From UHGV virus genome UHGV-0186582: DNA of 39,992 nt; one strand, written 5' to 3'. This document shows, piece after piece, positions 17,614-34,974 of the stretch. The notes beneath the pieces were generated by a model that saw only the letters and a list, made by a program, of their open reading frames with translations, was not told the origin of the DNA and made no database searches. A program made the position numbers and the translations under genes. How positions within the stretch are numbered: position 1 is the stretch's first letter; the number at the start of each line of letters is the position of its first letter. This DNA is from a virus.

Positions 17614-18931
17614 TCTCGATGTCCTCGTCGGTAATGGATGCCCCGATGCCGGTTACGTCAGAATTTTCTCGCAAATCAGTCATAGCGGCTTTCAGTGTCA
17701 TCAGACCATCACCCAGCGCTGTACTGATTGCGTTGGTAGTGTTTAACGCCACCGTTGAGCGATCGACATCAGACATTTGCCAGAGCGGGTTAAACTCAAA
17801 CGTGAAATCGTCCGGTAGCGGCTTGCCAAGTTCCGAACGATGCATGATGTCCAGTATCCGCCGCACCGGAAGACGTAAACGTCTCTCCTGCAGCGAGCTT
17901 ACCCGATCGTAATAGTTGGCAAGGTCTGCATCGCCGGTAGAAAATCCTTTCGGGGACTGTCCGAACAACCGCACCAGTGGGATACCAACAGCGCCACTAA
18001 TCTGTTCTGCAAACTGCGAAAGGATGTCATCCAGACCACTGAAGCTGTACTGATGGGTTTCAAACTTATCCCGCGAGTCCATGAGCGTCATGCCTTCATT
18101 GCTCTGGAACTGTCGAATCAGGTCGATATTCTTCAGCAACGCTTCATACGCAGGACCACCAAGTGCGATAAGCTCGCGTAGCTTCTCCACGCTGTAGGTG
18201 CGCAGATGCGCCTTGTAGACCAGCTGCGCCGCGCCGACAGTAGCGCTGTCGAACGCGGTAAGACGATCCCAGATACGCTCTACAACCGACATTCCCCATT
18301 CGTTCTCGGTCATCTTCTGCTGGAATGGCAGCGTGACGCCATCAAAGCGAATCAGACGACTGTGATGAATGCGCCAGGCAGGAATTCCCGTTGCTGTGGT
18401 CACCACATCGTAAAACTCAGGTTTACCCAGGTCCGGCCCCATATCTTTAATGCGGCGGGTCAGCACTGGGTTAATCATCCAGCGGTCGAGCGGGAGAATG
18501 CCCTTAAACTTGCCTTCTCCAATGGTTTCGAGCCGCAGCGGGGTCATTGGTGCCTGCCCCTCGATCATGATGAAGCCGACCGCGCCGCCGTAGAGGCGAG
18601 ACCATTTCAGCACGTCGTTCAGCGCATCCCAGATCTGCAACTCATCAAGTTGTGATTCGAGAATGCCGCGATCTTTTGCATCAATTTCCGAAGTGATGCG
18701 AATGCCTTTGCGGGTCATATCATCCGGGATAGCGTCGACCGCTTCGCCGATGATCCAGGACGAGCGATAGGACCATTCCACCAGCATGCGGTTGCGGCTG
18801 GTGAAGTTAGCCCGGTAGGTCGATGCTGAGTGCTGGTTAGGCGTCTGCATCCCTACGCGGGCGACAAAGTTCTCATAGCCATCAGCGGTGGCCTGCGCAG
18901 TTCTCCGCAGGGCTTGTTTGTTTCGTGCCAT
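17465..18931 (-). CDS. Portal protein
   Basis: 488 aa immediately downstream of large terminase; acidic C-terminus. Confidence 0.7.
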   Translation of the reverse strand: MARNKQALRRTAQATADGYENFVARVGMQTPNQHSASTYRANFTSRNRMLVEWSYRSSWIIGEAVDAIPDDMTRKGIRITSEIDAKDRGILESQLDELQIWDALNDVLKWSRLYGGAVGFIMIEGQAPMTPLRLETIGEGKFKGILPLDRWMINPVLTRRIKDMGPDLGKPEFYDVVTTATGIPAWRIHHSRLIRFDGVTLPFQQKMTENEWGMSVVERIWDRLTAFDSATVGAAQLVYKAHLRTYSVEKLRELIALGGPAYEALLKNIDLIRQFQSNEGMTLMDSRDKFETHQYSFSGLDDILSQFAEQISGAVGIPLVRLFGQSPKGFSTGDADLANYYDRVSSLQERRLRLPVRRILDIMHRSELGKPLPDDFTFEFNPLWQMSDVDRSTVALNTTNAISTALGDGLMTLKAAMTDLRENSDVTGIGASITDEDIENAEDEAPPGIGEPDDEPQEPSGGNPVSNQPTQDSAGGRGHRKWSLRWFK

Positions 18932-20553
18932 CAGGCCTGTCTCCCTAGCAGCTCCCAGATGTTCAGGGCTGAATTCATTGGCGCGTAGCTGATCATCACC
19001 GAGTCGGCGAGGTTCGGCGACTTGGTGCCATCAGGCTGTTTATCAACAACGATTTTCCCCACGCCGTTAATGGAGTAGGTCGGCTGCGACAGCTCGATGA
19101 TGAGTTTGTCTTTGCTCGCCATGGCGCTGCTGATTGAGATGATTTCGTCCGGGTTGTAGGCCATGCCCTCAACCACGGCGCGATAGGTGTTCTGGAAAAG
19201 CTTGCGTAACCACCACCAGCTCTGGGCCTTGGCGTTGGCGAAGAAGTCCTTGTTCAGGCGTGCGGCCTGTCCGTTGTCCCCGCGCACCGCTTCATCGTCC
19301 GGATCAAATACCGCGCCGCTACCACGAAACGGTGTGGCGAGTATTGACGGTCGGCGCGCAGCGTTACGCAGTTCGTTGATGGCGCGTGCATCGCCGCGAA
19401 CGCCAGCGCCCAGGCCGTCCTCGTCGAAGCGAAATTCTTCGAGGTTGTCCTGTTCGCAAAAGCCGAAGACCTTCTCAACGGACTGGTAAATGTCGCTGCC
19501 CACGCCGGACCATTCACGCACGTTCTCCAGAAGGAAGCCGTGACGGGTCGAAAAGGCATTTTTGTCCCGGCCTTCGTCGGCGACGTCCATCGCGCCCAGT
19601 CGCTTGCCCGTTGGCTGAATACCAAGTTTGATATGCGCGTCGACGGCAGCCTGTACCCAGTCGGACGGGATCAGGACGCCTTCCGCAGATGCGCTGTAGT
19701 TCAGGTCAAGTTCCTGCGCCACCACCACCGGATTGTCGATTTTCTCGCACTCCCTGCGATACCACTCTTCATCCTTGCGCGGGTCATCTCGCCAGTGGAA
19801 CGTGAATACTGGTATTTTTCCGCCGTGGCGCTTCTGCGCGAACGGGTTCGCCATGCCATTAACCGAGCTCAGGTCAATACGGCAACGGGTGGTTTGCGAC
19901 AGCGCCGCATCAATCAACAGAGGACGCTGGAGGAATGCAGCTTCATCCACCAGGTAGAGCGTGGTACGGTCACCACGACCGATATTGTCGCCAGCCTCGC
20001 CTTTGATGACCGCGCCAGTATCGGGAAACTCAACGCGCATATACGGCGCATGCTTCTTCTCGTCCCACGAACCACGAAACTCGATGGGCAGTGTTTCCAC
20101 GAACTTTCGCGCCTTCCAGAACAGCGCCTTCGGGTCACCGGTGCTGTCGACGTATTCCTCTTTACGGGAGCCGAAACCGATAACCATTTCTTTGTTGAAG
20201 AGACAAAGCGAGCAGGCCAGTCCGATCGCGGTCCAACTGAGCCCCATTTCACGGGATTTTTCGGTAATACCATTCTCCCGATTACCCCAGCGTTCCATAA
20301 TCCAGTGGATCCACTCCTCCTGCTTAGGGAAGAGTAAAAACGGGATGGTCACCGGCAGGCCATAATCAATATTACGCGGGTCCGTTGTCATGCCCCAGTC
20401 GATGATGAACTGAGCCGGATTGGTTCGGTAAAACTGTTTTAGTGCTGGCAATATTTCAGGATTCTGGCGAATGCGCTGTAGGCGTTCCATCCGCCATTCA
20501 AAAACCATCTGGTAATCAGGATGTTTAAAATCGAAGGGGAATGGTAACGGCAT
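18931..20553 (-). CDS. Terminase large subunit
   Basis: 540 aa; Walker B-like LYLVDEAAF; follows small subunit. Confidence 0.75.
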
Positions 20554-20555
20554 AC

Positions 20556-21110
20556 TTAGCCCATCATTTTTCTATACGCCTCTGCAGCCTGCTCCGGCGT
20601 TAAGTTGGTAATTTCTGTTCTGACTGGTCCTCCATCAGCGCCAGTCACTTCATTTTTGACGTTGTCTTTAAACGCCTGAACAGAAACATGGCGCCCAAGT
20701 AACTCAAGGTTTTTAACCTTATCAGGCCATTTGATTTTCTTCAGAAGTGCGGCGCTATCTGCAGATACCATCTCGACGACATCCATACCCGATAGAGTCG
20801 TTCTCCATACTTTGGGCCAGTCTTTAATCGGCTTCAGTTCGCCATTGGCAAGCAGAATGTCAAGCACGTCCATCTGATCGATTTCAGTCAGCCGTCGCAA
20901 TACATAGGCAGCGTCTATACCTACCTCTTCATTGCGTTCAGCCTTTAGCTCAGCAATGCGATCTGCTATGTCAGGTTTTGACAGGTTCTCGCTACCAGTG
21001 GCGCGAGCAGTTTTCTCGCTGTAACCCGCCCTGATAGCTGCCTGAGTGGCGTTTAAATCTTTCAGGTACTCACGGGCAAACAGCTCTTGTTTGTCTGTGA
21101 GCTTTGCCAT
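20556..21110 (-). CDS. Terminase small subunit
   Basis: 184 aa, N-terminal HTH-like region, directly upstream of TerL. Confidence 0.65.
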
Positions 21111-21405
21111 TGTTGGCTCCGTTTATCCGTTAAAAGGGATATCAGTTAAGTTATCCCGTGTAGGGTATAAGGCATTGTCGAGACCACTCATTGAATGGCC
21201 TCTGCAATAACCGATGTCTTTCCATCAGTCCGCCACCACAAAGAATCTTTTTTGCCATCAGGCAGGAGGTTCATCTTTCAGTGGCTGCCAGTGTTATTTC
21301 CCCACTTACTGGCTTGGGTTGTTTCGCTGTACTGCCGTTAATTAGTGACCAGAAATTAACTCCGGTTTCATTATCAAGCCCACCCGTAGATGGGCTTTGG
21401 AATGG

Positions 21406-21924
21406 TCACTTTGGCAGTCCGGGGATCGATATTTGCGCCTGCTGCTCAAGCCTTTTGATTCTTGCTATGAGTTGCGGTTTTTTGATCCTGCCCCAGCGGT
21501 TCAGCAAGCGTCCTGACATACTGGCAACATCCTTTTCCTTCATGAACTCCAGCATTAACTCGTTGTGCTCTCTTTGGTATGAGTGAGCCATCTCCATCAG
21601 CCTGTCACGCATCCAATTAAATGCTTTGATAAACGCCTCTTTGATGGCGGCAGCTTTTTTGCCGGTAAACGACATGATGATGTACATCGCACCGTCTTTG
21701 GAAATTTCATATTCAACATACTGATTACCCTTGTGTTCATAGGTAACCCGCGAAAAGTTGCTGGTTAGAAATTCATCCGAACAGTCTAGCTTTTCGATTT
21801 TCTGAATGATGTGGTGATGCTGCTTGTCGAAGTAAGCTGCTACCTTGCGGGAGGTTGTGATCACGCGATCACCAGAAACAACCACCATGTCCCGGAAATC
21901 GAGATTAGCCAATTGATGATTCAT
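21406..21924 (-). CDS. rha: Rha-family phage regulatory protein
   Basis: N-terminal motif VVVSGDRVITTSRKVAAYFDKQHHHIIQKIEKL matches recalled Rha signature; lies between lysis and terminase as in P22-like phages. Confidence 0.5.
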   Translation of the reverse strand: MNHQLANLDFRDMVVVSGDRVITTSRKVAAYFDKQHHHIIQKIEKLDCSDEFLTSNFSRVTYEHKGNQYVEYEISKDGAMYIIMSFTGKKAAAIKEAFIKAFNWMRDRLMEMAHSYQREHNELMLEFMKEKDVASMSGRLLNRWGRIKKPQLIARIKRLEQQAQISIPGLPK

Positions 21925-22071
21925 AGCGTCTTACCTTTTAGAAAGATGAGCCTGTTCGCACAGAAAAGCCGTCCCCGAGATGGTCGCCACCATATACGGC
22001 AATTCTCAGGCTCAGCTTTCTGAAAGACTCGGGATTGTTACGCGCTGCGATGCGCTGTTTACTGCAGATGT

Positions 22072-22094
22072 AAAAAAGCCCCGCGAATGCGAGG
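22072..22094 (-). terminator. Rho-independent terminator downstream of the lysis cassette
   Basis: Minus strand CCTCGC-ATTC-GCGGGG followed by CTTTTTTAC. Confidence 0.45.
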
Positions 22095-22269
22095 CTAAAT
22101 CCTGGTGTTTGTGATGACTGGCTCTTATCTCAACGCAGCCCCTTACCGCGCGCCATATGCTTAACTTCAAGCATCAGCAATGAGATGTTTAATCTGGATT
22201 CACTCCAGAAGTGATCACCACCCTGTCTACAGAGCCAGATGTGAAGGATGATGAATAGAATTATCGCTA

Positions 22270-22737
22270 TCATCGAAGGCATTGCGTCCTGATGTATTCC
22301 TGAAGCGTTCTCAGTGCTGTTTGGTCGCGGATAATTCCGTCCCGGATACCGAGAACGTTTCGTCCAGCAACTGGAGAGAGTTCGACGGTGGCATCATTGC
22401 CCATGCCGGAGGCGCTGGAGGCTTCGGCTGAGGATGGCACAGGGCATTTTCCTTTGACGAGCACCCTGCCACCATTATCAAGCTTGCGACGAAGAGCATC
22501 ATTTTCAGCTTTCGCATCAGCTAACTCCTTCGTGTATTTTGCATCGAGCGCAGCAACATCACGCTGACGCATCTGCATGTCAGTAATTGCCGCGTTCGCC
22601 AGCTTCAGTTCTCTGACATTTTTGTCGCGCTGGGCTTTGTAGGTAATGGCATTATCACGGTAATGATTAACAGCCCATGAAAGGCAGACAATGATGCAGA
22701 TAACCAGAGCGGAGATAATCGCGGTGACCCTGCTCAT
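22270..22737 (-). CDS. Rz: Spanin inner-membrane subunit Rz
   Basis: N-terminal half near-identical to lambda Rz ([40 protein letters not shown]...); C-terminal half diverges. Confidence 0.8.
22311..22517 (-). CDS. Rz1: Spanin outer-membrane lipoprotein Rz1 (embedded in Rz, +1 frame)
   Basis: [19 protein letters not shown] lipobox and proline-rich [11 protein letters not shown]; embedded in Rz as in lambda. Confidence 0.7.
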
Positions 22738-23210
22738 ACCTCAATCTCTCTGACCGTTCCGCCTGCTTCTTTGAATTTTGCTATCAGGCTGTCAGCCTTA
22801 TGCTCGAACTGACCATAACCAGCGCCAGGCAGTGAAGCCCAGATATTGCTGCAACGGTCGATAGCCTGACGAATATCACCGCGATCAATCATCGGTAAAG
22901 CGCCACGTTCTTTAATCTGTTGCAGTGCCACGGCGTCCTGGCTTTTCGGAGAGAAGTCTTTCAGGCCAAGCTGCTTGCGGTAGGCATCCCACCAACGGGA
23001 AAGAAGCTGGTAGCGTCCTGCTGCTGTTGATTTGAGTTTGGGGTTTAGCGTGACAAGTTTGCGAGGGTGATCGGAGTAATCAGTGAACAGTTCGCCACCG
23101 ACAATAACATCATAACCATGATTTCTGGTTTTCTGCCGTCCGTTATCAGTTCCCTCCGACCACGCCAGCATATCGAGGAACGCCTTACGTTGATTATTGA
23201 TTTCCACCAT
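22734..23210 (-). CDS. R: Endolysin R (lytic transglycosylase)
   Basis: 158 aa, essentially lambda R sequence ([42 protein letters not shown]...). Confidence 0.9.
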
Positions 23211-23517
23211 CTTCTACTCCGGCTTTTTTAGCAGCGAAGCGTTTGATAAGCGAACCAATCGAGTCAGTACCGATGTAGCCGATGAAAACGCTCGTTATAT
23301 AAGCGAGATTGCTACTTAGTCCGGCGAAGTCGAGAAGGTCACGAATGAACCAGGCGATAATGGCGCACATCGTTGCGTCGATTACTGTTTTTGTAAACGC
23401 ACCGCCATTATATCTGCCGCGAAGGTACGCCATTGCAAACGCAAGGATTGCCCCGATGCCTTGTTCCTTTGCCGCGAGAATGGCGGCTAACAGGTCATGT
23501 TTTTCTGGCATCTTCAT
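23194..23517 (-). CDS. S: Holin/antiholin S (S107/S105 dual start)
   Basis: 107 aa, near-identical to lambda S including MKM dual-start N-terminus; upstream DNA also matches lambda. Confidence 0.9.
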
Positions 23518-23953
23518 GTCTTACCCCCAATAAGGGGATTTGCTCTATTTAATTAGGAATAAGGTCGATTACTGATAGAACAAATCCAGGCTACTGTGTT
23601 TAGTAATCAGATTTGTTCGTGACCGATATGCACGAGCAAAACGGCAGGAGGTTGTTAGCGCAACCTCTTGCTACCCGCTTTCACGAAGGTCATGTGTAGA
23701 AGTCCGCAGCGTAACTATCACCGATGAATTCATGATAGCCAGTGGCTACGGCTCAGTTTGGATTGTGGCGACCGGTGCTGATCTCCGGTTTGCTGCAACT
23801 GCCTACAGCGGGCTACGTGGCCACACCGAATCCAGCGAAAGATTCTTGCCCTTACACATCAGCCTGTGCATTCACCACAACGATAAGAGCACTGCGCGGC
23901 ACCTTTCACCAATTCCGCGAGGTCTGCGGGTTCAATGCTCTTACCTGTTGTGC

Positions 23954-23998
23954 AAATAAAAAAGCCACCGTTGCAACTTAAGAGTCACTAACGGCAGC
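23954..23998 (-). terminator. tR'-like rho-independent terminator of the short late leader transcript
   Basis: Minus strand GCTGCCGTT...AACGGTGGC stem (with G-U pairs) followed by TTTTTTATTT; downstream sequence recalled as matching lambda tR' flank. Confidence 0.45.
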
Positions 23999-24008
23999 TT
24001 ACCTTCTA

Positions 24009-24038
24009 ATTATGGCTAAATGGCTAATTGCATGTCAA
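24009..24038 (-). promoter_or_regulatory. Late promoter pR' candidate (TTGACA-18 bp-CATAAT) overlapping the 3' end of the Q-like gene
   Basis: -35 TTGACA (rc of 24033-24038) and -10 CATAAT (rc of 24009-24014) read on minus strand; stop of upstream gene at 24016-24018. Confidence 0.45.
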
Positions 24039-24534
24039 GGCTTTTAACAGCAACATGCTTAACTTTCTCAACACGTTTACGCATTTTGAAAGCATTTTGC
24101 ATCGGCTGGTATAAAACAAATAATGACGCTTTCAGGATGTCGTCAATTTCGTTTCTACAGGTTGCCAGTGAAGGTTTTCTCCATCCCTCGCCACCACGTC
24201 CACACATCTTGCGTGGCTTTGCAGTCGCGTGATAGTAGGATGCAATTGCTCGCTTAGATGAACCATGAGCGTAGTAGCTGAGGAGGATGCTAAAGGCTTT
24301 CTTGTCAATGTACATGACGGAATCGACGACCTGAGAAATCAACATTCCATCATCATCATTACACATTGGCCTTGTCATAACTCTTCCCGGCTCTACGCTC
24401 TCCATGAACTTCGCTATTACGCTGCTCATGCGCTTTTCCAGGCGGCCTGAATAAACCCATGCGCCCCACAGTTCAAGCCAGCCATTCAGCCAATCGTGCT
24501 GTTCTTTGGTGAGGTTTAGTTCTCTTATGCTCAT
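24016..24534 (-). CDS. Late-gene antiterminator Q-like protein (non-lambda type)
   Basis: 172-aa ORF between ninH and the pR'/lysis region; not similar to lambda Q as recalled; assignment by position and promoter context. Confidence 0.5.
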   Translation of the reverse strand: MSIRELNLTKEQHDWLNGWLELWGAWVYSGRLEKRMSSVIAKFMESVEPGRVMTRPMCNDDDGMLISQVVDSVMYIDKKAFSILLSYYAHGSSKRAIASYYHATAKPRKMCGRGGEGWRKPSLATCRNEIDDILKASLFVLYQPMQNAFKMRKRVEKVKHVAVKSLDMQLAI

Positions 24535-24719
24535 CGTCTTCCCCTCTTGCCCTGTTTGACCATCAGGACGCCGTTAACTATTACGTGACGCTCGCCTTTG
24601 CTGTCTCGTTTGTACTTGAGCACTGTTCCTCTTGCGCAGGAAAGCATCCTTGCCACTTCGGTCTGATTGCCTCGTGTCTGGATAAGAAGCTCTGGTATCG
24701 TTTGAATTGTGGCGTTCAT
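24531..24719 (-). CDS. ninH: NinH
   Basis: 62 aa; IPELLIQTRGNQTEVARMLSCARGTVLKY resembles lambda NinH (IPDMLVEAYGNQTEVARRLKCSRGTVRKY). Confidence 0.7.
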   Translation of the reverse strand: MNATIQTIPELLIQTRGNQTEVARMLSCARGTVLKYKRDSKGERHVIVNGVLMVKQGKRGRR

Positions 24720-25078
24720 ACGCTCTCCAGTTCGGTGATTTTTATTCCAAGCCTTCCGCCTGGTACTTTCACGCCACGAATTACGCGAATGTCATCGAAT
24801 TGCTCGTCGTCTTCCGCAAATCCGGCGTGGATAAGGGAGTCGAGTAAACCTTTCAGGATGTTGTCGAGGTCGCGGCGGCGGGAGTCTGGAACGTCTGCGA
24901 TGACTTTGATGCGGAGTCGTGATTTGGTGAAAATGTCTAACTTAAGTTGGCGGATGATTTGCTGAACGTCTTTTCGGTATTTCTGGCCTTTATCGCTGAT
25001 GTAGTATTGACTCCCCCGTCTTCGCCAGTAGGTATTCAGCGACGGCGGGTATGGAAGCACAAACTGATATTCGTTCAT
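24716..25078 (-). CDS. rusA: Holliday junction resolvase RusA
   Basis: 120 aa; LPYPPSLNTYW...DRRRRDLDNI...GGRL motifs as in RusA. Confidence 0.75.
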   Translation of the reverse strand: MNEYQFVLPYPPSLNTYWRRRGSQYYISDKGQKYRKDVQQIIRQLKLDIFTKSRLRIKVIADVPDSRRRDLDNILKGLLDSLIHAGFAEDDEQFDDIRVIRGVKVPGGRLGIKITELESV

Positions 25079-25353
25079 TGGACAAACACCCTCCCATTGT
25101 TAACCAATTTTTTAAGGGTAAGCACAATGGCCCGATCCATTTCAGCCCTTCGCTCTTCCCTGCTCATATCTCTCCCATTATCAATTCTTGAATGACAATC
25201 AACACATAGCGCAGCAGTAAGGCAATCATCTACTTTAATCCCAACCCCCTTCCCTTCATTTCTGTGAGCGGCCTGAACTCCGTATCTTCCGCAAAGAACG
25301 CAAAATTCAATATCCCTGACTGCCTGAAGCCATTTTTTGCTTCTAAACATCAA
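25075..25353 (-). CDS. YbcO-like (DUF1364) Cys/His-motif protein, putative nuclease
   Basis: 92 aa with CVLCGRYGVQAAHRN ... CVDCHSRID pattern. Confidence 0.45.
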   Translation of the reverse strand: MMFRSKKWLQAVRDIEFCVLCGRYGVQAAHRNEGKGVGIKVDDCLTAALCVDCHSRIDNGRDMSREERRAEMDRAIVLTLKKLVNNGRVFVQ

Positions 25354-25852
25354 TCCCCTCCAAAAAACGTCGGTACGCTGATTTGTTTTTTATGTTGCAC
25401 ACTGTCTGCGCACAAACACCAAATTCTTTGGCTATATCTCTGTATTTGCCTTTTGATTTATATATTGATTTCACTTGTTCTGGCGTTAGTTTGCAGAAGT
25501 GATGATTAAACCCATGAACAAGCAATCCGGAATCAAATCCATGTTTCGCATTTTCTGTTCGCGTTACCCACTCAAGATTTTCAACTTTATTATTAAGTTT
25601 ATTTCCATCCTTGTGATTAACTTCCGGTTTGCCATCTGGGTTATCAATAAATACTTCTGCAACAATTCTGTGAACCATTTTATATGATGGTCTTTTCCCG
25701 CCACCTGGATACAGACCGACAAATGCATATCCTCCTGGTTTAATGCCATGAGATAATTTTTTTGATTTACGGCATGAAATGATGTCTCCATTTTCATTTA
25801 CTTTATATATACCCTCAAAGCCGGGGATATCTTTTTCTTTAACATCACTCAT
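25343..25852 (-). CDS. Free-standing HNH homing endonuclease (NUMOD4 + HNH_3 motifs)
   Basis: 169 aa; GFEGIYKVNENGDI (NUMOD4-like) and HKDGNKLNNKVENLEW (HNH); gene is visibly AT-rich; start overlaps ninF stop (ATGAGTGA). Confidence 0.75.
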   Translation of the reverse strand: MSDVKEKDIPGFEGIYKVNENGDIISCRKSKKLSHGIKPGGYAFVGLYPGGGKRPSYKMVHRIVAEVFIDNPDGKPEVNHKDGNKLNNKVENLEWVTRTENAKHGFDSGLLVHGFNHHFCKLTPEQVKSIYKSKGKYRDIAKEFGVCAQTVCNIKNKSAYRRFLEGIDV

Positions 25853-26015
25853 CGTCTTCTTCCTCGTACATTGAGCTATTCGGATCGCTCATCAGTTCTG
25901 CGCAGCAGTGCTCACACACGTTAACTTCCAGCACATGCAGCTTTTGACCGCAATTAGCGCACGTTAAAGCCCGCTCGACGCTTTCTTGTTCGTAACTTCG
26001 ATTTGGGTCAATCAC
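25845..26015 (-). CDS. ninF: NinF
   Basis: 56 aa below ORF-track cutoff; GTG start; (V)[55 protein letters not shown] near-identical to recalled lambda NinF. Confidence 0.7.
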
Positions 26016-26194
26016 CTTGTTTTCCTCGCACGTTCTCTAAGCCACCGGATATCCCACAGGTGAGCCGTGTAGTTGAAGGTTTTTACGTCAGATTCTTTTG
26101 GGATTGGCTTGCGTTTATTTCTGGAGCGTTTCGTTGGAAGGTATTTGCAGTTTTCGCAGATTATGTCGGTAATACTTCGTCGCTGTCGTCTCAT
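26012..26194 (-). CDS. ninE: NinE
   Basis: 60 aa from internal ATG overlapping methyltransferase stop (ATGA); [52 protein letters not shown] matches recalled lambda NinE. Confidence 0.75.
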
Positions 26195-26720
26195 GCCGCC
26201 CTCCTGACGCCCTGCCCGATCGCCATCAATGCCGCTTTGGATACGGTAGTAAACATCCGTCGAGGACTGATGAACGGTCGCCAAATCAGCAGCATGGAAC
26301 CTTTGCTGTTTCCCTTCTTCTCCAGCCCTGTCGATGGTTCGATAAAATTAATCCGTCCATCAGTGATAATACGAACTTCGTCAACACTCTCCAGAGCCTT
26401 GCTGAACCATCCGACAGACATATCCTCTGGCACAAGCATCACTACCGTCTGTCGCTGTTGTATGCACTGCTCAGCGGCTTTTTCCACCCACGGCCTGATA
26501 TTGCTGTACGGTGGGTTATTCCAGATTGCACCGTGGCTTACCCACTCAGAATTGAGCGCGTCGTCGGCCTCAGTTAGCCAGTGAGCGCACAGAGCATTTT
26601 TGTCGCTCGCTGCCGAATCCAGCCAGAATCCAAACTCAATATCCAGTGCATCAAAAAGCCAAAGCGGCGTTCGCCAGCAGTCCTTGTCGTGTGCTGGCGT
26701 ATTTGATTTGATAGTCACTC
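26191..26720 (-). CDS. Phage N6-adenine DNA methyltransferase (Dam-like, NPPY motif)
   Basis: [13 protein letters not shown]...WNNPPYSN motifs; probable start is GTG at 26720 overlapping ninB stop with AAGGAG RBS (track ORF extends to TTG 26754). Confidence 0.7.
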
Positions 26721-27140
26721 TACTTGCCTCTCCTTTAGATCCCGGTACTCGCAATTATCAGGAATGGTTAGTCGTAATCCCTTCTGATGCGCCCACTGGT
26801 CAATATCGGTCAGATATTTGTGCATATCTCCAATATCAAGCTGACGTGTTGATTTAACGCATCGTGTAATATTAAAAATCGTCACCCTTTTAGCCGGACA
26901 AAATATATCTTTCAGCCACTCATGAACCTCTTCAGGCGTGAAGTTTTCAGCAGAAGCAGCAGATAACTGTGCGGCTATTTCTGCATTCCACATCCACAGC
27001 AGATTGTTTTGTGACAATGTACGCTTTTCACGGTACTCAGATATTTTGATTCGCCAGCGTTTGCCAGTAGAGAGGATTTGTTTCAGAACTAACCAGAATT
27101 GTGATTTATTGGTTTCGTGCAGAATGAAATCATTCATCAT
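26715..27140 (-). CDS. ninB: NinB-family recombination protein (Orf-like)
   Basis: 141 aa; RTLSQNNLLWMW motif resembles lambda NinB RSLDQNRKLWACL; first gene after tR2-like terminator. Confidence 0.55.
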   Translation of the reverse strand: MMNDFILHETNKSQFWLVLKQILSTGKRWRIKISEYREKRTLSQNNLLWMWNAEIAAQLSAASAENFTPEEVHEWLKDIFCPAKRVTIFNITRCVKSTRQLDIGDMHKYLTDIDQWAHQKGLRLTIPDNCEYRDLKERQVE

Positions 27141-27357
27141 CAGTCATCAAATCTAATTGCTGGATAATTCTGTCACACTGAAAATCATTATCGATTTTAA
27201 CCAACCGGCGAAGAACGCGGTCACGCGGATAGATACGTGGCTTAGGGGCGTTTTTCTGTCTCTCGCCAGTCGGAAGTCTGGAAGCAGACCAGTACCGCTT
27301 TGCACGACCAATGTTCTCCTGAAAGTCGGCGCGGACAAGCTCAGTCATCGAACTCAT
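27130..27357 (-). CDS. Hypothetical small protein
   Basis: 75-aa ORF just downstream of tR2-like terminator. Confidence 0.35.
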   Translation of the reverse strand: MSSMTELVRADFQENIGRAKRYWSASRLPTGERQKNAPKPRIYPRDRVLRRLVKIDNDFQCDRIIQQLDLMTDDE

Positions 27358-27384
27358 TTCTTAAAGCCTCCAATTACCCTCCCC

Positions 27385-27417
27385 CAAATAAAAAGGCCTG
27401 CGATTACCAGCAGGCCT
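27385..27417 (-). terminator. tR2-like rho-independent terminator between ren and nin region
   Basis: Minus strand AGGCCTGC-TGGTAATC-GCAGGCCT followed by TTTTTATTT; 8-bp perfect stem. Confidence 0.6.
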
Positions 27418-27442
27418 GTTATTAGCTCAGTGATGTAGATGG

Positions 27443-27733
27443 TCATTGCCTTACCTCCATAAGCGCCCTATTAATAAACGCCGTCATTGGATTTGCACAT
27501 CCCCACCCCGTACCATCTGGATTTCTTTTAATTGGCTCCTTCTTCACTTTGCGTTTTGCATAAATAACCGTCTTCCACTTACGCTCAACAACACTCAAAT
27601 ACCCTTGTTTCACCATATGCCTTGCTGCTTGAGCGATTCTGTTATTTGGTATTCCGGTAATCAGAGCTAATTCATGTGGGGAGAATTGTTCATGAGTTTT
27701 CAGATATTCCAGGATGATTTCTTTTCCAGTCAC
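27443..27733 (-). CDS. ren: Ren-like protein
   Basis: 96 aa; MTGKEIILEYLKTHEQFSPHELALITG resembles lambda Ren MTGKEAIIHYLGTHNSF... Confidence 0.6.
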   Translation of the reverse strand: MTGKEIILEYLKTHEQFSPHELALITGIPNNRIAQAARHMVKQGYLSVVERKWKTVIYAKRKVKKEPIKRNPDGTGWGCANPMTAFINRALMEVRQ

Positions 27734-28575
27734 GATCTGCTCCTGTAACTATCCCATGTAAACGCAAGGGTGCATCCGCCGCCATCATTCATCCTGTCAA
27801 TAACACGCTCACCAATGAATGCAGACAGTTCATCTTTGCTCTGGTTGCTAATCAGGATTGTTGGCTTCATGCGCTCGTAGCGGGTGTTGATGATTTCGAA
27901 CATGATCATCTTTTCCGCCTCGCTTCCAAACTGCACACCAACCTCATCGATAATTAGCAGGTCAGGTTTAGTGAACTGTCGGATCACTTCATCCTCTGTG
28001 CGGGTGGAGTTTTTCGACCATGTTGATTTATATTCTCTGGCAATTTTCAGCGCCGTTGTGAAAATAGCTGAGCTTTGATGTTCCGTAATTGCGTGCCGGG
28101 CGATAGCCAGTGCAAGATGATTCTTTCCAGTACCAGGCTTTCCACACATAACCAGCCCACCGCCTTTCTGTAACCTCTCAGGCCATTTGCTGGCGTATGC
28201 CTGACACACCCTGAGCACTCTCTTTGCATCGTCGTTGACTGGCTCGTAGTTCTGTAGTGTGCAACCCTTGAATCGTTCAGGAATATCAAGATTATTCAAC
28301 AGAAACTCGACATTGCGCTTACGTGATTCCTCGTCGCTTTTACTCTTCTCCGCCTGTAGCAGAATAAGCTCATCTCTCATGCATTCCGGGCATTCGCTAG
28401 GTCTTGAGGCAAACTTAATTGGCCCAGTCGAGTAACGGTTACGCTGCTCAAACTCACCATGTTTTTCACAGATGCCAGTGCCAATTTCTACAGCTGTATG
28501 CTCGATAGCAATTGGCGGAGAACTCAATTCTGCAAGTTTTTTCTCCAGTTGGGAGATCTTTTCATCCAGCGTCAT
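27730..28575 (-). CDS. Replication helicase loader, DnaC-like AAA+ ATPase (P-function analogue)
   Basis: Walker A GKPGTGKNHLA and Walker B LLIIDEVG; start taken as ATG 28575 with AGGAG RBS overlapping O stop. Confidence 0.75.
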   Translation of the reverse strand: MTLDEKISQLEKKLAELSSPPIAIEHTAVEIGTGICEKHGEFEQRNRYSTGPIKFASRPSECPECMRDELILLQAEKSKSDEESRKRNVEFLLNNLDIPERFKGCTLQNYEPVNDDAKRVLRVCQAYASKWPERLQKGGGLVMCGKPGTGKNHLALAIARHAITEHQSSAIFTTALKIAREYKSTWSKNSTRTEDEVIRQFTKPDLLIIDEVGVQFGSEAEKMIMFEIINTRYERMKPTILISNQSKDELSAFIGERVIDRMNDGGGCTLAFTWDSYRSRS

Positions 28576-28577
28576 GT

Positions 28578-29423
28578 TCACTCCTGCGCCCATGAAGGCA
28601 TTTCAGTTTGCCCGTAATCTTTGGCGGCAAAGTTTTCCTGCATAGCTCGCTGCTGCGGCCTCGGTTGAGATTTCCCCTTTGGAGTCTTGGGCTCAAAAAT
28701 CCCCTGCCAACCACTGGCGATGCTCTGGTTTATAATTTCTTCAGGTGTATATCCCTTCTCCAGACTTCTGCTTAGAACGTTGATAGCCTGAGTAATACTT
28801 TGCTTAGACTTGATCGACTTACCTATCTCCTTGCGATAGGTAACCCACGACAACCATGTTTCTGCTGATAACCAATCAGGCAACTCTGTTTCTAGCGGGT
28901 CGAACTTCTGAGAAACTTTTTTGGGGGATATAGGGGGTTTATTAATATTTTCTTTTGTCTTTAAAGAATGTCTTTTGTGTGTCTCTAACTTCGAGACATT
29001 GAGTGTCTCTAATTTGGAGACATTTTTTGTCTCTAACTTCGAGACAAAGTTGCTAACTTGGAGACACTTGCTGAATTGCCACGCAGATACCTCACTGTTT
29101 ACACCGATTTGATTTCCATCCATAAACAGGCAATTCATTGAAATCAGTTCTTTTTTAGCCTTGTTAACATTCTGCCTTGACAGTCCTGTTAACTGAGCAA
29201 TTTGCTCATCGGCTATTCGATCTGTTTTCTTATTGAACCCATATGTTTTCCGGACGTAGGCCAGCATAACTTTCAACTGGCGAGCGGTTAAATCGGCACT
29301 TGCGATAGCTTCCAGCAGCTCGTTAGCGAATCTGGTGTAACCATCATCGATATCAGCCACTCTTAGCTCCTGTTCGGCAAAGTTACCTCTGCCGAAGTTG
29401 AGTATTTTTGCTGTATTTGTCAT
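28578..29423 (-). CDS. Replication initiator O-like protein (contains ori iterons)
   Basis: 281 aa; N-terminal HTH-like region; repeated VSKLET peptide units encoded by the iterons. Confidence 0.75.
   Translation of the reverse strand: MTNTAKILNFGRGNFAEQELRVADIDDGYTRFANELLEAIASADLTARQLKVMLAYVRKTYGFNKKTDRIADEQIAQLTGLSRQNVNKAKKELISMNCLFMDGNQIGVNSEVSAWQFSKCLQVSNFVSKLETKNVSKLETLNVSKLETHKRHSLKTKENINKPPISPKKVSQKFDPLETELPDWLSAETWLSWVTYRKEIGKSIKSKQSITQAINVLSRSLEKGYTPEEIINQSIASGWQGIFEPKTPKGKSQPRPQQRAMQENFAAKDYGQTEMPSWAQE
28980..29066. repeat. Origin iterons: ~4 copies of TGTCTC-N7-GAGACA at 24-bp periodicity, flanked by AT-rich DNA
   Basis: TGTCTCTAACTTCGAGACA at 28980 and 29028, TGTCTCTAATTTGGAGACA at 29004, degenerate copy near 29050; AT-rich stretch 28925-28978. 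Confidence 0.7.
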
Positions 29424-29457
29424 AATGACTCCTGTGGATTGATCCAGTCTTTCTACA

Positions 29458-29736
29458 TCAGGCCTCGAAGAATTCGCCGTTCTTCGGGGCTTTTTCTTTT
29501 GTCAGCATTCTGGCTACTTTCTTAGCCAGTTCCGCCAACTCCTCGTCTTCAACACCCCATTCAAGAACAGCCAGAAGCATGGCCATCTTTGGGATAAAGC
29601 TGTCTTTCCATCGCGAAATTTGCGATTCATTAATCCCTAACGCGTCGGCAACCTTTCGCTGACCACGTACAGCAATTCGATTCAGGATGTTGCTTGTAAT
29701 TGCATTCGCTTTCTTGCGAGTACTTGTAAGTTCCAT
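29458..29736 (-). CDS. cII: CII-like transcriptional activator
   Basis: 92 aa; ESQISRWKDSFIPKMAMLLAVLEWGV closely matches lambda CII KSQISRWKRDWIPKFSMLLAVLEWGV. Confidence 0.8.
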   Translation of the reverse strand: MELTSTRKKANAITSNILNRIAVRGQRKVADALGINESQISRWKDSFIPKMAMLLAVLEWGVEDEELAELAKKVARMLTKEKAPKNGEFFEA

Positions 29737-29784
29737 ATGTAAGTATTTCCTTAACTAATAAGAAGTTATGCGCATCAACTTATG

Positions 29785-29827
29785 CGCGTTGTATTCCCGC
29801 ATTTCGGCGGGAATGAGGACCATGACT
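29785..29827 (-). promoter_or_regulatory. nutR: boxA (GCTCTTTAACA) and boxB hairpin (TCCCGC-CGAAAT-GCGGGA) between cro and cII
   Basis: Read on minus strand; boxB 29785-29802, boxA 29817-29827. Confidence 0.5.
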
Positions 29828-29844
29828 GTTAAAGAGCAATTTGC

Positions 29845-30030
29845 TTATGCCGCTTTGCGGTAAGCGCTTTCTTGATACTTCAGGGCGCCAGCTGTAACGA
29901 CTTCCAGTCGATAGGCGTCTTTCTCTGGGATGACTTCCTTCCACTGAGAGACTGCTGCGTCGCTAATGCCTAACGCTTTAGCTACAGCACGCTGGGTTCC
30001 GAAGTGGTCGATAACATCTTTCTTGTACAT
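29845..30030 (-). CDS. cro: Cro repressor (P22 type)
   Basis: 61 aa MYKKDVIDHFGTQRAVAKALGISDAAVSQWKEVIPEKDAYRLEVVTAGALKYQ matches recalled P22 Cro. Confidence 0.85.
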   Translation of the reverse strand: MYKKDVIDHFGTQRAVAKALGISDAAVSQWKEVIPEKDAYRLEVVTAGALKYQESAYRKAA

Positions 30031-30044
30031 AGACTCGCTCCGAA

Positions 30045-30110
30045 ATTAAAGAACACTTAAATTATCAACTAAAGGAATCTTAAGTCAAGTTTATTTAAGA
30101 TGTCTTAACT
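30045..30110. promoter_or_regulatory. OR region: three P22-type 18-bp operators with divergent PR (minus) and PRM (plus)
   Basis: ATTAAAGAACACTTAAAT (30045-30062), ACTAAAGGAATCTTAAGT (30068-30085), ATTTAAGATGTCTTAACT (30093-30110) vs recalled consensus ATTTAAGATATCTTAAAT; PR -35 TTGACT / -10 GATAAT on minus strand (30061-30088). Confidence 0.6.
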
Positions 30111-30761
30111 ATGAAAACTCAATTGATGGGAGAGCGCATTCGCGCTCGGAGAAAAGAACTCAAGATCAGGCAGGCCGCACTTGGAAAGATGGTCGGCGTG
30201 TCTAATGTTGCCATATCTCAGTGGGAACGCTCTGAGACAGAGCCAAATGGAGAGAATCTTCTCGCCCTGGCTAATGCGTTGAAGTGTTCCCCTGACTATC
30301 TGATGAAAGGAGAGGAAAGTCTTTCAAACATTGCCTATCACAGTAGGCATGATCCAAGAGGGTCATTCCCTCTGATTAGCTGGGTGAGCGCAGGGTGCTG
30401 GATGGAAGCTGTAGAACCATATCATAAGCGTGCAATAGATAACTGGTACGATACAACCGTAGACTGTTCAGAAGATTCGTTTTGGTTGGACGTGAAGGGA
30501 GACTCAATGACGGCTCCAGCCGGTCTCAGTATCCCTGAAGGAATGATAATACTCGTCGATCCTGAAGTAGAGCCGCGTAACGGGAAACTTGTAGTTGCAA
30601 AGCTCGAAGGAGAAAACGAGGCAACTTTCAAGAAGTTAGTTATTGATGCAGGCAGGAAGTTTCTAAAACCACTTAACCCACAATATCCGATGATCGAGAT
30701 CAACGGAAACTGCAAAATCATCGGCGTAGTTGTCGATGCAAAACTAGCAAACCTTCCATAA
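30111..30761 (+). CDS. c2: C2 repressor (P22 type, LexA-like autocleaving)
   Basis: 216 aa; MKTQLMGERIRARRKELKIRQAALGKMVGVSNVAISQWERSETEPNGENLLAL... matches recalled P22 C2. Confidence 0.9.
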   Translation: MKTQLMGERIRARRKELKIRQAALGKMVGVSNVAISQWERSETEPNGENLLALANALKCSPDYLMKGEESLSNIAYHSRHDPRGSFPLISWVSAGCWMEAVEPYHKRAIDNWYDTTVDCSEDSFWLDVKGDSMTAPAGLSIPEGMIILVDPEVEPRNGKLVVAKLEGENEATFKKLVIDAGRKFLKPLNPQYPMIEINGNCKIIGVVVDAKLANLP

Positions 30762-30783
30762 GGGGGCATTCGCCCCTTTTTTT
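30762..30783 (+). terminator. Rho-independent terminator after c2
   Basis: GGGGC-ATTC-GCCCC followed by seven T. Confidence 0.5.
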
Positions 30784-30851
30784 ATTTCCTTTAAAAATCA
30801 AAGCTAAACTTAAGTTACGAAAGAAAATTTAAGTTTTCTTCAAAAATACTC

Positions 30852-30880
30852 TTGACCATTAATTAAAGAGATCTTAAATT
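30852..30880 (+). promoter_or_regulatory. pL candidate with overlapping OL operator
   Basis: -35 TTGACC (30852-30857), 17-bp spacer, -10 TAAATT; operator-like ATTAAAGAGATCTTAAAT (30862-30879). Confidence 0.4.
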
Positions 30881-30926
30881 TAAGCCATCAGCAGGAAGCT
30901 GGTAGCCAAACGGAACAGATTGGCAG

Positions 30927-30967
30927 GCTCTTTAACATTGATGGGATTGTCCCGCCGAAATGCGGGA
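30927..30967 (+). promoter_or_regulatory. nutL: boxA (GCTCTTTAA) and boxB hairpin identical to nutR
   Basis: boxA 30927-30935; boxB TCCCGC-CGAAAT-GCGGGA at 30950-30967. Confidence 0.5.
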
Positions 30968-31074
30968 ACCAAAGAGTAGTTGGCTTTGGGGTGATGTGAA
31001 GTGCAGCTGCACGACGGCAACCGGAAGATAAGCACCCGGCGCGTCACCGCCAAAGTCAATCATCGGAGGTCAAC

Positions 31075-31347
31075 ATGACAGTAGTCATTACATATCTGGC
31101 TGACGATAACGCCAGAAATCGCCGCAGAGCACGCAGACAGGCTCAACGTGAACAGGCAATGCAAGAGCAGCGACTGGCGCGAAAAATTGCGCTAAAGCTC
31201 TCTGGTTGCGTCAGAGCAGATAAAGCAGCATCACTCGGAAGCATTCGCTGCAAGAAGGCAGATGAATGCAGTGGAAGTATTTGCCTGCCAAACGTAGCCA
31301 TTTACGCGGCAGGCTACAGGAAATCCAAACAGCTGACAGCAAGATGA
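31075..31347 (+). CDS. N-like transcription antiterminator (P22 gene 24-like)
   Basis: 90 aa; arginine-rich motif NARNRRRARRQAQ; C-terminus LPNVAIYAAGYRKSKQLTAR resembles recalled P22 gp24; GGAGG RBS. Confidence 0.65.
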   Translation: MTVVITYLADDNARNRRRARRQAQREQAMQEQRLARKIALKLSGCVRADKAASLGSIRCKKADECSGSICLPNVAIYAAGYRKSKQLTAR

Positions 31348-31364
31348 CTTGTGTTGGTCGCCAG

Positions 31365-31410
31365 AAAATGAAATTAGGCAGCAAACCACTTATTTGAGGT
31401 GAAATATGGA
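31365..31410. repeat. Repeat A copy 1 (~46 bp, second copy at 32505-32550, one mismatch)
   Basis: AAAATGAAATTAGGCAGCAAACCACTTATTTGAGGTGA(A/G)ATATGGA read in both places. Confidence 0.8.
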
Positions 31411-31573
31411 AATTGAAATACCAGACAGCTTCGACCCTGAATGGCAAGCAATGATGCTTCGCCAGTTAGCTGGGAACATTGAGGCACTTAAAAATCGAGA
31501 AGATGAACCTGACGAACTACTTATCGACTGCGAGGAAATTATCGAATCTCTTCGCGAATATTCAGGATTTTAA
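31406..31573 (+). CDS. Small acidic hypothetical protein (55 aa)
   Basis: ATG inside repeat A copy 1; MEIEIPDSFDPEWQAMMLRQLAGNIEALKNREDEPDELLIDCEEIIESLREYSGF; below ORF-track cutoff. Confidence 0.3.
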   Translation: MEIEIPDSFDPEWQAMMLRQLAGNIEALKNREDEPDELLIDCEEIIESLREYSGF

Positions 31574-31598
31574 GGCCGAATAGTCGGCCTTTATTTTT
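31574..31598 (+). terminator. Rho-independent terminator (tL1-like)
   Basis: GGCCGA-ATAG-TCGGCC followed by TTTATTTTT. Confidence 0.5.
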
Positions 31599-31615
31599 GG
31601 CATAAACAACAGAGG
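31586..31615. repeat. Repeat B copy 1 (30 bp exact, second copy 32821-32850)
   Basis: GGCCTTTATTTTTGGCATAAACAACAGAGG identical at both sites, each ending in the AGAGG RBS of a paralogous gene. Confidence 0.85.
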
Positions 31616-31620
31616 TGGAT

Positions 31621-31881
31621 ATGACCGTAGAAAGAATGAAAAGGCCGTGGAGTGTTGTTGGCACTGGATTCAACGATGATGGTGTTTATGTCACGTTTGA
31701 CGATACAACCATACATCGAGGTGATTTGAGATTGATGGAGGCAGCTCCTGATTTGCTTGAAGCTCTGCAAGCGATGCTAAACAAGGCATACAAGCAAAGC
31801 TGGAATGACCATTATCCTGATGAAGTATCGAAAGCACTGTCAGCAATTAGCAAAGCTATTGGTGAAGATTATTACGATTGA
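31621..31881 (+). CDS. Hypothetical protein, paralogue of 32856-33152
   Basis: Shares AAPDLLEALQ...AISKA.G motif with second copy; ATG 31621 after repeat-B RBS. Confidence 0.5.
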   Translation: MTVERMKRPWSVVGTGFNDDGVYVTFDDTTIHRGDLRLMEAAPDLLEALQAMLNKAYKQSWNDHYPDEVSKALSAISKAIGEDYYD

Positions 31882-31886
31882 GGTTA

Positions 31887-32156
31887 ATGATGAAATTCAA
31901 ATTGAACGATGAAGTTAAATGGTCAAGCTCATCAAACGGTGTAACGAAGGTAAAAATCGGGTTTATCGTCGAGGTGATTCCTCCTGGTGTCAACGTAAAA
32001 AAATTCGAACTAGGCCGTCTGCTAGATGCACCTGGCCTTCCGAGGAAAGAAGAGAGCTATATAGTTTGTGTAGGTCCAAGACCCGGATCTCGTGCCAAGC
32101 CAAAATATTACTGGCCGCGAGTTAATAACCTGCGTCACTTACACGATGACAAATAG
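31887..32156 (+). CDS. Hypothetical protein
   Basis: ATGATG start with GAGG RBS; ~90 aa. Confidence 0.45.
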   Translation: MMKFKLNDEVKWSSSSNGVTKVKIGFIVEVIPPGVNVKKFELGRLLDAPGLPRKEESYIVCVGPRPGSRAKPKYYWPRVNNLRHLHDDK

Positions 32157-32504
32157 AAGTGAGTATCCTTGTTTTACTTTTCCAGCTTATTACGATTGAG
32201 GAGAGACGGAAATGATAGATGGGAAATCTGTGAAGATATTTGACGAGCAAGCTACACTGCCTTGATTTTATGTTAGGGATATTTCTTCGTTCTATGACGA
32301 ACCAACATTTGATATTTTATTTGTCGATGATGATGGTATATGTCGGTATTCGAACGATATTTTTAATTCAGAGTAAGAAGCCATCAATTACGCAGAGAAA
32401 TGCAATGCCAAAACAGCCGACTATGAACGCTGGGATTACTGCAAACATAATCGCTGGATTCTGACTCAACACATTGAAGCCAAATCCTCCTAGCTCGCAA
32501 TCAC

Positions 32505-32550
32505 AAAATGAAATTAGGCAGCAAACCACTTATTTGAGGTGAGATATGGA
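32505..32550. repeat. Repeat A copy 2
   Basis: See copy 1. Confidence 0.8.
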
Positions 32551-32615
32551 AGAAGAATTTGAAGAGTTCGAAGAGCATCCGCAGGATGTGATGGAACAAT
32601 ACCAGGACTATCCGT

Positions 32616-32816
32616 ATGACTACGACTATTGATACAAATCAATGGTGTGGACAATTCAAGCGATGCAATGGATGCAAGCTGCAATCGGAATACATGGTTA
32701 AGCCTGAAGAAATATTTCCTGTAATGGAAGATGGGAAATATGTCGATAAATGGGCAATACGAACGACGGCAATGATTGCCAGAGAACTTGGTAAACAGAA
32801 TAACAAGGCTGCCTGA
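32616..32816 (+). CDS. Hypothetical small protein (Cys-motif CGQFKRCNGC)
   Basis: 66-aa ORF; its start overlaps a 28-codon acidic mini-ORF (32546-32632) so the true coding unit is uncertain. Confidence 0.35.
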   Translation: MTTTIDTNQWCGQFKRCNGCKLQSEYMVKPEEIFPVMEDGKYVDKWAIRTTAMIARELGKQNNKAA

Positions 32817-32820
32817 TGGT

Positions 32821-32850
32821 GGCCTTTATTTTTGGCATAAACAACAGAGG
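32821..32850. repeat. Repeat B copy 2
   Basis: See copy 1. Confidence 0.85.
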
Positions 32851-32855
32851 ATAAC

Positions 32856-33152
32856 ATGGAATTTAAAGGTACTGAAGGCAAGTGGGAAATAATGATGGAT
32901 GGCGATGAGATTAAAATAATCCAGGCAGACTCACTTGAAAATGGCGCAGGCTGGCGTTCGTATATTGCAATCTGTGAGGAAGTTCAATGTATTGAAGATG
33001 CCAATCTAATAGCGGCAGCACCTGACCTTCTCGAAGCACTTCAGTTATTACTTAAGCAATCCAAAAATAGAACAACGACAACATATCCAGAATGGTATGG
33101 AGCTGTTAATAAAGGTCTTGCAGCAATCAGCAAGGCTCTGGGAGGTGAATGA
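32856..33152 (+). CDS. Hypothetical protein, paralogue of 31621-31881
   Basis: 98 aa; IAAAPDLLEALQLL...AAISKALGGE. Confidence 0.5.
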   Translation: MEFKGTEGKWEIMMDGDEIKIIQADSLENGAGWRSYIAICEEVQCIEDANLIAAAPDLLEALQLLLKQSKNRTTTTYPEWYGAVNKGLAAISKALGGE

Positions 33153-33352
33153 TGTGCGAGTTTTATGAAGCAGATATCAAACGCCCAGAAATGGCAAGTG
33201 ATGCGACATTACGTGATTACTTCGCGGCAAAGGCTATGCAAGCAATGATTAGCAATCCATCGATTATCGATAATGATTCTGATGGAGTTGTTAATTATGC
33301 AGCAAGCGCTGCATATAAGTTTGCAGACGCAATGCTCAAAGCTCGCGAATAA
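33149..33352 (+). CDS. Hypothetical protein
   Basis: 67 aa, ATGA overlap with upstream stop. Confidence 0.45.
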   Translation: MMCEFYEADIKRPEMASDATLRDYFAAKAMQAMISNPSIIDNDSDGVVNYAASAAYKFADAMLKARE

Positions 33353-33451
33353 GCACTGTGTATTCATTCCAACGAGTGAATACACGGAGCAATGTCGCTC
33401 GTAACTAAACAGGAGCCGACTTGTTCTGATTATTGGAAATCTTCTTTGCCC

Positions 33452-33478
33452 TCCGATGTGGGGGGCCTTTTTATATGC
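33452..33478 (+). terminator. Possible terminator-like hairpin
   Basis: CCCTCC-GATGT-GGGGGG followed by CCTTTTTAT. Confidence 0.3.
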
Positions 33479-33538
33479 ATACCAATAACGCTTCACTCGA
33501 GGCGTTTTCGTTATGCAATCAAACAGAAGGAGCATCCT

Positions 33539-33709
33539 ATGCAACAGTTCGCTATTGCAGGGGCGGCATCGGTTCGCCCTTTCAACCCGATTTTATCGGT
33601 ACAGCATTCACGAAAAAACATTTTAACCGGAGCAGACTTTAAACAACCAAGAATGAAAAGTTTGCTCGAAAAGCTTTGGGATATTTTGAAACAACAAGGC
33701 CGTCCATGA
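33539..33709 (+). CDS. CIII-like protein (FtsH inhibitor family)
   Basis: 56 aa; MQQFAIAG... and ...LWDILKQQGRP resemble lambda CIII MQYAIAG...LIDILNQPGVP; AGGAG RBS. Confidence 0.45.
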   Translation: MQQFAIAGAASVRPFNPILSVQHSRKNILTGADFKQPRMKSLLEKLWDILKQQGRP

Positions 33710-33864
33710 GTTTTACAGATAACTGGTCAGACGAAGAATTCATTCGTCAGATGAAAGAATTAATCGGTAACGAAGGAGATATTCATGTCACTTGCAACCA
33801 CAGTGAAGGAGAGCAAGTTACAGAGACGCATGTACACGCAGAAAGCTCTCTGGTATCGCCATAA
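33706..33864 (+). CDS. Hypothetical small protein (kil position)
   Basis: 52 aa from ATG overlapping cIII-like stop. Confidence 0.3.
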   Translation: MSFTDNWSDEEFIRQMKELIGNEGDIHVTCNHSEGEQVTETHVHAESSLVSP

Positions 33865-33965
33865 TGGCGACCGCGAAGGAATGCGGGTATGCCTTAATTT
33901 GTCCCGAGTCGAAGTATTAAATCAGCGTTATTTCCTTGGGTCATGTCCATTCTGAGAACAATCAT

Positions 33966-34951: not shown

Positions 34952-34974
34952 ATTAGCAAAATAAGGCTCCCATT

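Follow-up and report, generated by a model that had tools for sequence, protein, structure and literature searches.

A small Dam-family N6-adenine methyltransferase gene between ninB and ninE of a lambdoid phage region, with GATC as its most likely target

We analyzed a 39,992-nucleotide (nt) stretch of viral DNA, UHGV virus genome UHGV-0186582 (hereafter the window), and in it a gene, dam, that occupies positions 26191..26718. The gene is intact from its GTG start to its TGA stop and encodes a 175-residue phage N6-adenine DNA methyltransferase (PF05869 / TIGR01712). Very probably, this protein is an S-adenosylmethionine (SAM)-dependent, single-domain enzyme of the "small Dam" family of phages T1, HP1, and VT2, which most likely acts on GATC, is made as a delayed-early product, and protects the progeny DNA. 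dam lies on the minus strand, which an initial annotation made from the sequence alone had left unstated; all other features given below with their window coordinates lie on the same strand.

Family membership and conserved motifs

The dam protein matched the Pfam profile PF05869 ("Dam") with an E-value of 1.2e-64 and a score of 217.5 bits (cut-off 28.1) over profile positions 1-167 of 169. The match to the NCBIfam equivalog TIGR01712 ("phage N-6-adenine-methyltransferase") had an E-value of 1e-79 and a score of 265.8 bits (cut-off 97.05), and covered positions 1-165 of 165. E-values of this size exclude a chance match. PHROG 111 and the orphan methyltransferase models of PADLOC concurred, the best PADLOC matches being to "oMTase". 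The initial annotation had described an NPPY-motif N6-adenine methyltransferase; the two profile matches and the NPPY at residues 68-71 bear this description out.

The protein was aligned with 31 homologues (58-98% identity). Motif IV, the NPPY of the amino-methyltransferase catalytic loop (26506..26517), is invariant in the 32 homologues of this alignment and in the more distant T1 Dam and HP1 orf13. A family block resembling motif I follows the first strand at residues 29-38 (26605..26634) and is presumed to be the SAM-binding loop, given its position in the predicted Rossmann fold. The conserved N-terminal family motif, W-R-T-P at residues 15-18 (26665..26676), retains W15, T17, and P18, while position 16 varies across the family (Q, R, A, M, S). 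The invariant residues of the alignment are T17, P18, E28, F29, F31, L33, D34, A36, G63, A64, I65, N68, P69, P70, Y71, S72, M94, L95, P97, D99, S101, W104, I145, W146, R147, and P148, with W15 nearly so. The family blocks W-x-T-P, F-x-L-D-x-A, M-L-x-P-x-D-x-S-x-x-W, and I-W-R-P are thus all present in the dam protein. L33, D34, A37, the NPPYS, and the block from M94-L95 to W104-F105 are also invariant when T1 Dam and HP1 orf13 are included.

Start codon and boundaries of dam

The longest mechanically called open reading frame (ORF) that covers dam runs from 26754 to 26191, starts with TTG, and encodes 187 residues in 564 nt. An in-frame GTG is located at 26718..26716, twelve codons into this ORF. 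The initial annotation had considered the start ambiguous. The comparison with relatives, the onset of homology, and the onset of the hidden Markov model match settle the choice in favor of GTG.

The GTG (26718..26716) overlaps the ninB stop codon TGA (26717..26715) in a GTGA at 26715..26718; relatives have ATGA here. A Shine-Dalgarno-like sequence, AAGGAGAGG, can be read within the 3' end of ninB at 26727..26735, 8-11 nt 5' of the GTG. It comprises an AAGGAG at 26735..26730 and a second element, GAGG, at 26730..26727, 8 nt before the GTG. No Shine-Dalgarno-like sequence was seen 5' of the TTG start, in agreement with the earlier remark that the longer ORF lacks a ribosome binding site. The earlier description of the GTG as overlapping the ninB stop and preceded by AAGGAG was also correct, but the end coordinate given for the gene, 26720, is 2 nt out of frame.

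In phages HK140, VT2-Sakai, and 1717, the same start codon is ATG, contained in an ATGA shared with ninB. An in-frame stop codon 3 codons 5' of this ATG in VT2-Sakai and phage 1717 makes an N-terminal extension impossible in these two phages. Nucleotide alignments with 236 phage records open at the second base of the GTG (nt 38 of the 564-nt ORF), and those with the listed E. coli genomes open at base 2 of the 528-nt dam. This onset places a mosaic joint exactly at the start codon and identifies the twelve extra codons (26719..26754) as ninB coding sequence read in another frame, a spurious extension outside dam. The TIGR01712 profile match begins at residue 2 of the 175-residue form. A 528-nt coding sequence (CDS) is annotated at the equivalent position in all four relatives examined (HK140, Dewey, VT2-Sakai, and phage 1717), and Dewey shares the identical GTG junction along with this CDS. 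As judged from these sequence comparisons, the start of dam is resolved as the GTG at 26718, not the TTG at 26754.

The mosaic recombination joint (26715..26720) changes the usual ATG to GTG. Among the phage records, the ninB allele 5' of the joint aligned, over a 36-nt stretch, with phage Dewey only; dam itself occurs in 244 records.

Closest relatives and target specificity

A protein of the Shiga toxin (Stx) 2c phage Stx2_5044 matches the dam protein at every residue (100% identity), and orf32 of VT2-Sakai, annotated "similar to DNA methylase", matches it at 174 of 175. The sole difference is R16, where orf32 has Q16. The two genes have the same length, the same position in the order ninB-dam-ninE, and 4-nt overlaps with both neighbors. 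They differ in the start codon (GTG here, ATG in VT2-Sakai), at which a different ninB allele is joined, and the present phage has no Shiga toxin module in the part examined. orf32 is the only VT2-Sakai ORF of at least 80 residues with a [DNS]PP[YFWH] motif. A second adenine methyltransferase of VT2-Sakai was considered as the real M.EcoVT2Dam and rejected: orf4 encodes a DUF551 protein, and apart from orf32 an amino-methyltransferase motif was absent from all ORFs of at least 80 residues. By elimination, we infer that orf32 is M.EcoVT2Dam, an equation that no source states. M.EcoVT2Dam is given as targeting GATC in PMC6602927, with reference to Radlinska and Bujnicki 2001, who cloned the enzyme.

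Two more distant members of PF05869 are phage T1 Dam (M.EcoT1Dam; 33% identity, E-value 2e-26) and orf13 of Haemophilus phage HP1 (35% identity), which we take to be HP1 Dam. The blocks W-x-T-P, L-D-x-x-A, NPPYS, M-L-x-x-x-D-x-S-x-x-W-F, and R-x-x-F-I are common to both and to the dam protein; however, identity is only 33-35% and the genes lie in other genomic contexts. In T1, a virulent phage, the Dam protein is extended by 44 residues at the N-terminus and contains an insertion of 14 residues. M.EcoT1Dam is reported to be a GATC-specific orphan enzyme (PMC4996451). By analogy with the specificities reported for M.EcoVT2Dam and T1 Dam, the adenine of GATC is the most likely target of the present enzyme.

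The alpha-class enzymes E. coli Dam and T4 Dam, in contrast, belong to a different family: the dam protein has no Pfam match beyond PF05869, and identity in structural alignments is 8-13%. Both exceed the present protein in length (solved chains of 243 and 241 residues, versus 175) and, in contrast to it, carry a separate DNA-recognition domain. Kinship to the non-specific adenine methyltransferases Hia5 and Hin1523 was also considered and rejected; those proteins have DPPY, a classical FxGxG, and a region for the recognition domain.

Stx prophages carry another enzyme, M.EcoPA8orf6770P, which acts with PNB-2 and which, like dam, is prophage-borne and annotated as a DNA adenine methyltransferase. 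The pair is a 16S rRNA methyltransferase of the MT-A70 family with a DPPW motif (PMC10810198). The possibility that dam, too, encodes an RNA methyltransferase of this two-subunit kind appears very improbable, given that the rRNA methyltransferase known from prophages is encoded by another gene, of MT-A70 type. dam cannot be equated with it: the DPPW/MT-A70 enzyme is encoded at another prophage location and depends on a co-transcribed winged-helix partner subunit, whereas dam has NPPY, no MT-A70 Pfam match, and other neighbors.

The predicted model of the dam protein is a single small domain with a class I Rossmann-type methyltransferase fold and without a separate target-recognition domain. 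Strands are predicted at residues 31-35 and at residues 64-67, the latter immediately before the NPPY. The small size and single domain of this model could also suit an adenine methyltransferase of relaxed or broader specificity, which would methylate GATC and related sites and, instead of reproducing the specificity of host Dam, counter restriction over a wide spectrum. M.Btr190III, which is 35% identical to T1 Dam, is reported to methylate GATC with marked off-target activity (PMC4996451), and the orphan methyltransferases of mobile elements have been termed "semi-specific" (PMC12707154). Yet M.EcoVT2Dam, equated here with the one-residue variant orf32, is listed as GATC-specific. A methylome paper on Shiga toxin-producing E. 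coli likewise predicts GATC for the homologues and attributes the one extra motif in a carrier strain to another enzyme; this test is weak because the prophage copies are probably silent in a lysogen. We consider relaxed specificity quite unlikely. The related proposal, that near-cognate sites are methylated besides GATC at the enzyme levels of the lytic cycle, as reported for M.Btr190III, so that host Dam is not simply duplicated, is unlikely as well.

Several observations weigh against a GATC-specific, protective Dam. The off-target methylation by the related M.Btr190III is one of them. The allele studied here has R16 for Q16, unlike orf32, though this position varies in the family, and its GATC activity is a prediction from sequence. 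Residues 36-62, the stretch in which SAM-binding motifs II and III are expected, are poorly defined in the structural model. A search of the PDB for a solved relative of PF05869, using the protein alone and a profile of 32 sequences, returned chance-level matches only (E-values of at least 0.24), so the motifs could not be placed on a solved relative. The search thus detected no solved structure of any family member that could show how an enzyme of 175 residues reads GATC with no recognition domain. Finally, GATC is depleted in the window: 102 sites were observed, for an observed/expected ratio of 0.46 under a Markov expectation. GATC and CTAG (13 sites, ratio 0.41) are the most under-represented 4-base palindromes. 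The depletion implies that the phage also lowers its GATC content, which would be less needed with a fully protective methylase. Its genome is accordingly poor in GATC and at the same time contains the gene for a probable GATC methylase. Clusters of GATC that could be a regulatory target were sought across the window, and no four sites fell within 150 bp.

Prevalence and conservation

With the 564-nt ORF as query, 244 phage records contained a match at 95% nucleotide identity or more; they include many Stx1- and Stx2-converting phages, HK140, Sf101, and mEp506. In the phage records listed, the matching gene is mostly annotated as a DNA or N-6-adenine methyltransferase and is flanked by NinB and NinE. 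At the same identity threshold, 1566 of the 5426 complete E. coli genomes (29%) carry the 528-nt dam, in up to 5 copies each; the copies listed are annotated "phage N-6-adenine-methyltransferase". The order ninB-dam-ninE is the same in every genome listed and in every phage region examined. A tblastn search recovered a homologue in 1941 phage records, including phages of Klebsiella, Vibrio, Lactococcus, and Gordonia. dam is an already known, widespread, and routine accessory gene of lambdoid and Shiga toxin phages.

One could take dam for an inactive remnant or for one half of a decayed restriction-modification system: it is not essential, being absent from lambda, and the presence of host Dam makes it look redundant. 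However, the ORF is intact, all invariant family residues are present, and synonymous changes prevail in the comparisons with four orthologues (3:1, 9:3, 7:1, and 13:3), a pattern consistent with purifying selection. The gene is also kept in the 244 phage records and 29% of the complete E. coli genomes, with the same neighbors throughout those listed or examined, and no endonuclease gene or remnant of one is adjacent to it in this window, HK140, Dewey, VT2-Sakai, or phage 1717. We find the remnant explanation scarcely credible.

Genomic context and expected expression

Upstream of dam lies a gene for a divergent recombination mediator of the NinB/Orf family (26715..27140; PHROG 72, E-value 2.7e-34; NF007281, E-value 4e-54). 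Its match to the Pfam NinB profile, with an E-value of 0.0026, is below threshold. Downstream lies ninE (26012..26194; 183 nt, 60 residues; Pfam NinE, E-value 9.6e-43), whose ATG start (26194..26192) overlaps the dam stop codon TGA (26193..26191) in an ATGA at 26191..26194. The start of ninE is the ATG at 26194, giving 183 nt as in lambda and HK140. The longest ORF for ninE (26012..26284, TTG start, 90 residues) is over-extended and reaches about 90 nt into the 3' end of dam. The ninE-ninF stretch has 95.6% nucleotide identity to lambda 42097..42434. Lambda has the order ninB-ninC-ninD-ninE-ninF, and the window has NinB/Orf, dam, and ninE-ninF; dam therefore occupies the position of ninC and ninD. 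The placement proposed in the initial annotation, between ninB and ninE where lambda has ninC/ninD, agrees with both the neighbors and the lambda order. No restriction endonuclease was found among the 6 downstream and 4 upstream genes checked, and the statement of the initial annotation that none is adjacent to dam holds over this range.

The downstream neighbors are ninE, ninF, a homing-type HNH gene, a YbcO-like HNH gene, and RusA, then NinH and Q. The upstream neighbors encode NinB, a DUF7301 protein, a MarR/Ren-like protein, and a DnaC-like loader. The gene for this loader, like those for Q and NinH, was named only through the annotation of the collinear phage Dewey. The two HNH genes (25343..25852 and 25075..25353) lie between ninF and rusA, in the place of lambda ninG; one is of the homing-endonuclease type (HNH_3 and NUMOD4; PADLOC HEase, E-value 1e-24), and the other resembles YbcO/DUF968. 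Dewey has the same two HNH genes there, and the Dewey regions that match the window contain five HNH endonuclease features. A 75-residue DUF7301 / PHROG 1785 gene (27130..27357) lies between a terminator-like hairpin and ninB and overlaps the start of ninB.

This hairpin, upstream of dam and in the same direction of transcription, is a GC-rich intrinsic-terminator hairpin followed by a T run (27394..27417; flanks 27379..27467). Its sequence recurs unchanged in lambda at 40596..40619, a site between ren and ninB that we take to be the terminator tR2. Scans for promoter and terminator consensus sequences gave totals no higher than in shuffled sequence, and from the terminator scans only the lambda-identical hairpin was used. 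The hairpin falls inside a mechanically called 30-residue ORF (27354..27446), and Dewey has a 93-nt CDS annotated at the collinear position.

Overlaps of 4 nt of the ATGA type are typical of nin regions (PMC8022706). The GTGA and ATGA overlaps at the two ends of dam suggest translational coupling, and its position downstream of the presumed tR2 points to a gene that would be read only after N antitermination. Most likely, then, dam is a delayed-early, translationally coupled gene.

The window as a whole is a mosaic. The late structural half (1..23200) is myovirus-like, with 94.6% identity to vB_EcoM-611R5 and 82% to Salmonella phage SEN34. The early half (21100..39992) is lambdoid or P22-like, resembling N7, CUS-3, Dewey, and HK629.

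Proposed role and implications

We propose that dam, as part of the rightward early operon, would be expressed in lytic growth only after N-dependent antitermination has carried transcription past the tR2-like hairpin. Ribosomes passing on from ninB would translate it, and in the lysogen it would most likely be silent. In the enzyme, the NPPY loop would hold the flipped-out adenine while the methyl group passes from SAM to the N6 of the adenine in GATC. The phage enzyme could thereby keep the fast-replicating phage DNA fully methylated at GATC when host Dam is limiting or absent. Full methylation would protect the progeny DNA from methylation-sensitive restriction enzymes that cut at GATC; it may also guard against MutH nicking at unmethylated GATC, a suggestion of our own. 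Host Dam is reported to leave the virion DNA of lambda and P22 under-methylated, possibly since replication outruns it (PMC8022706), and a phage enzyme made in the lytic phase would close this gap. Shielding exported DNA from methylation-sensitive enzymes by methylation is a general strategy (PMC12707154). The present analysis shows the family membership of the protein, its motifs and predicted fold, and the boundaries, context, and prevalence of the gene, and the GATC specificities of M.EcoVT2Dam and T1 Dam come from published work; the identity of orf32 with M.EcoVT2Dam, the expression timing, the translational coupling, and the benefit to the phage are proposals.

Standard annotation pipelines already name dam, and the discovery value of the locus is little. 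For annotation, the practical points are that the correct boundary is the GTG at 26718 rather than the TTG at 26754, and that dam should be kept apart from the "DNA methylase" of MT-A70 type in Stx prophages, which is an rRNA methyltransferase. If near-cognate sites were indeed methylated, lambdoid phages would gain partial protection against several restriction systems at once. The wider questions concern the family rather than this locus: what a GATC methylase offers to phages whose hosts are Dam-positive, and how so small an enzyme recognizes its site.
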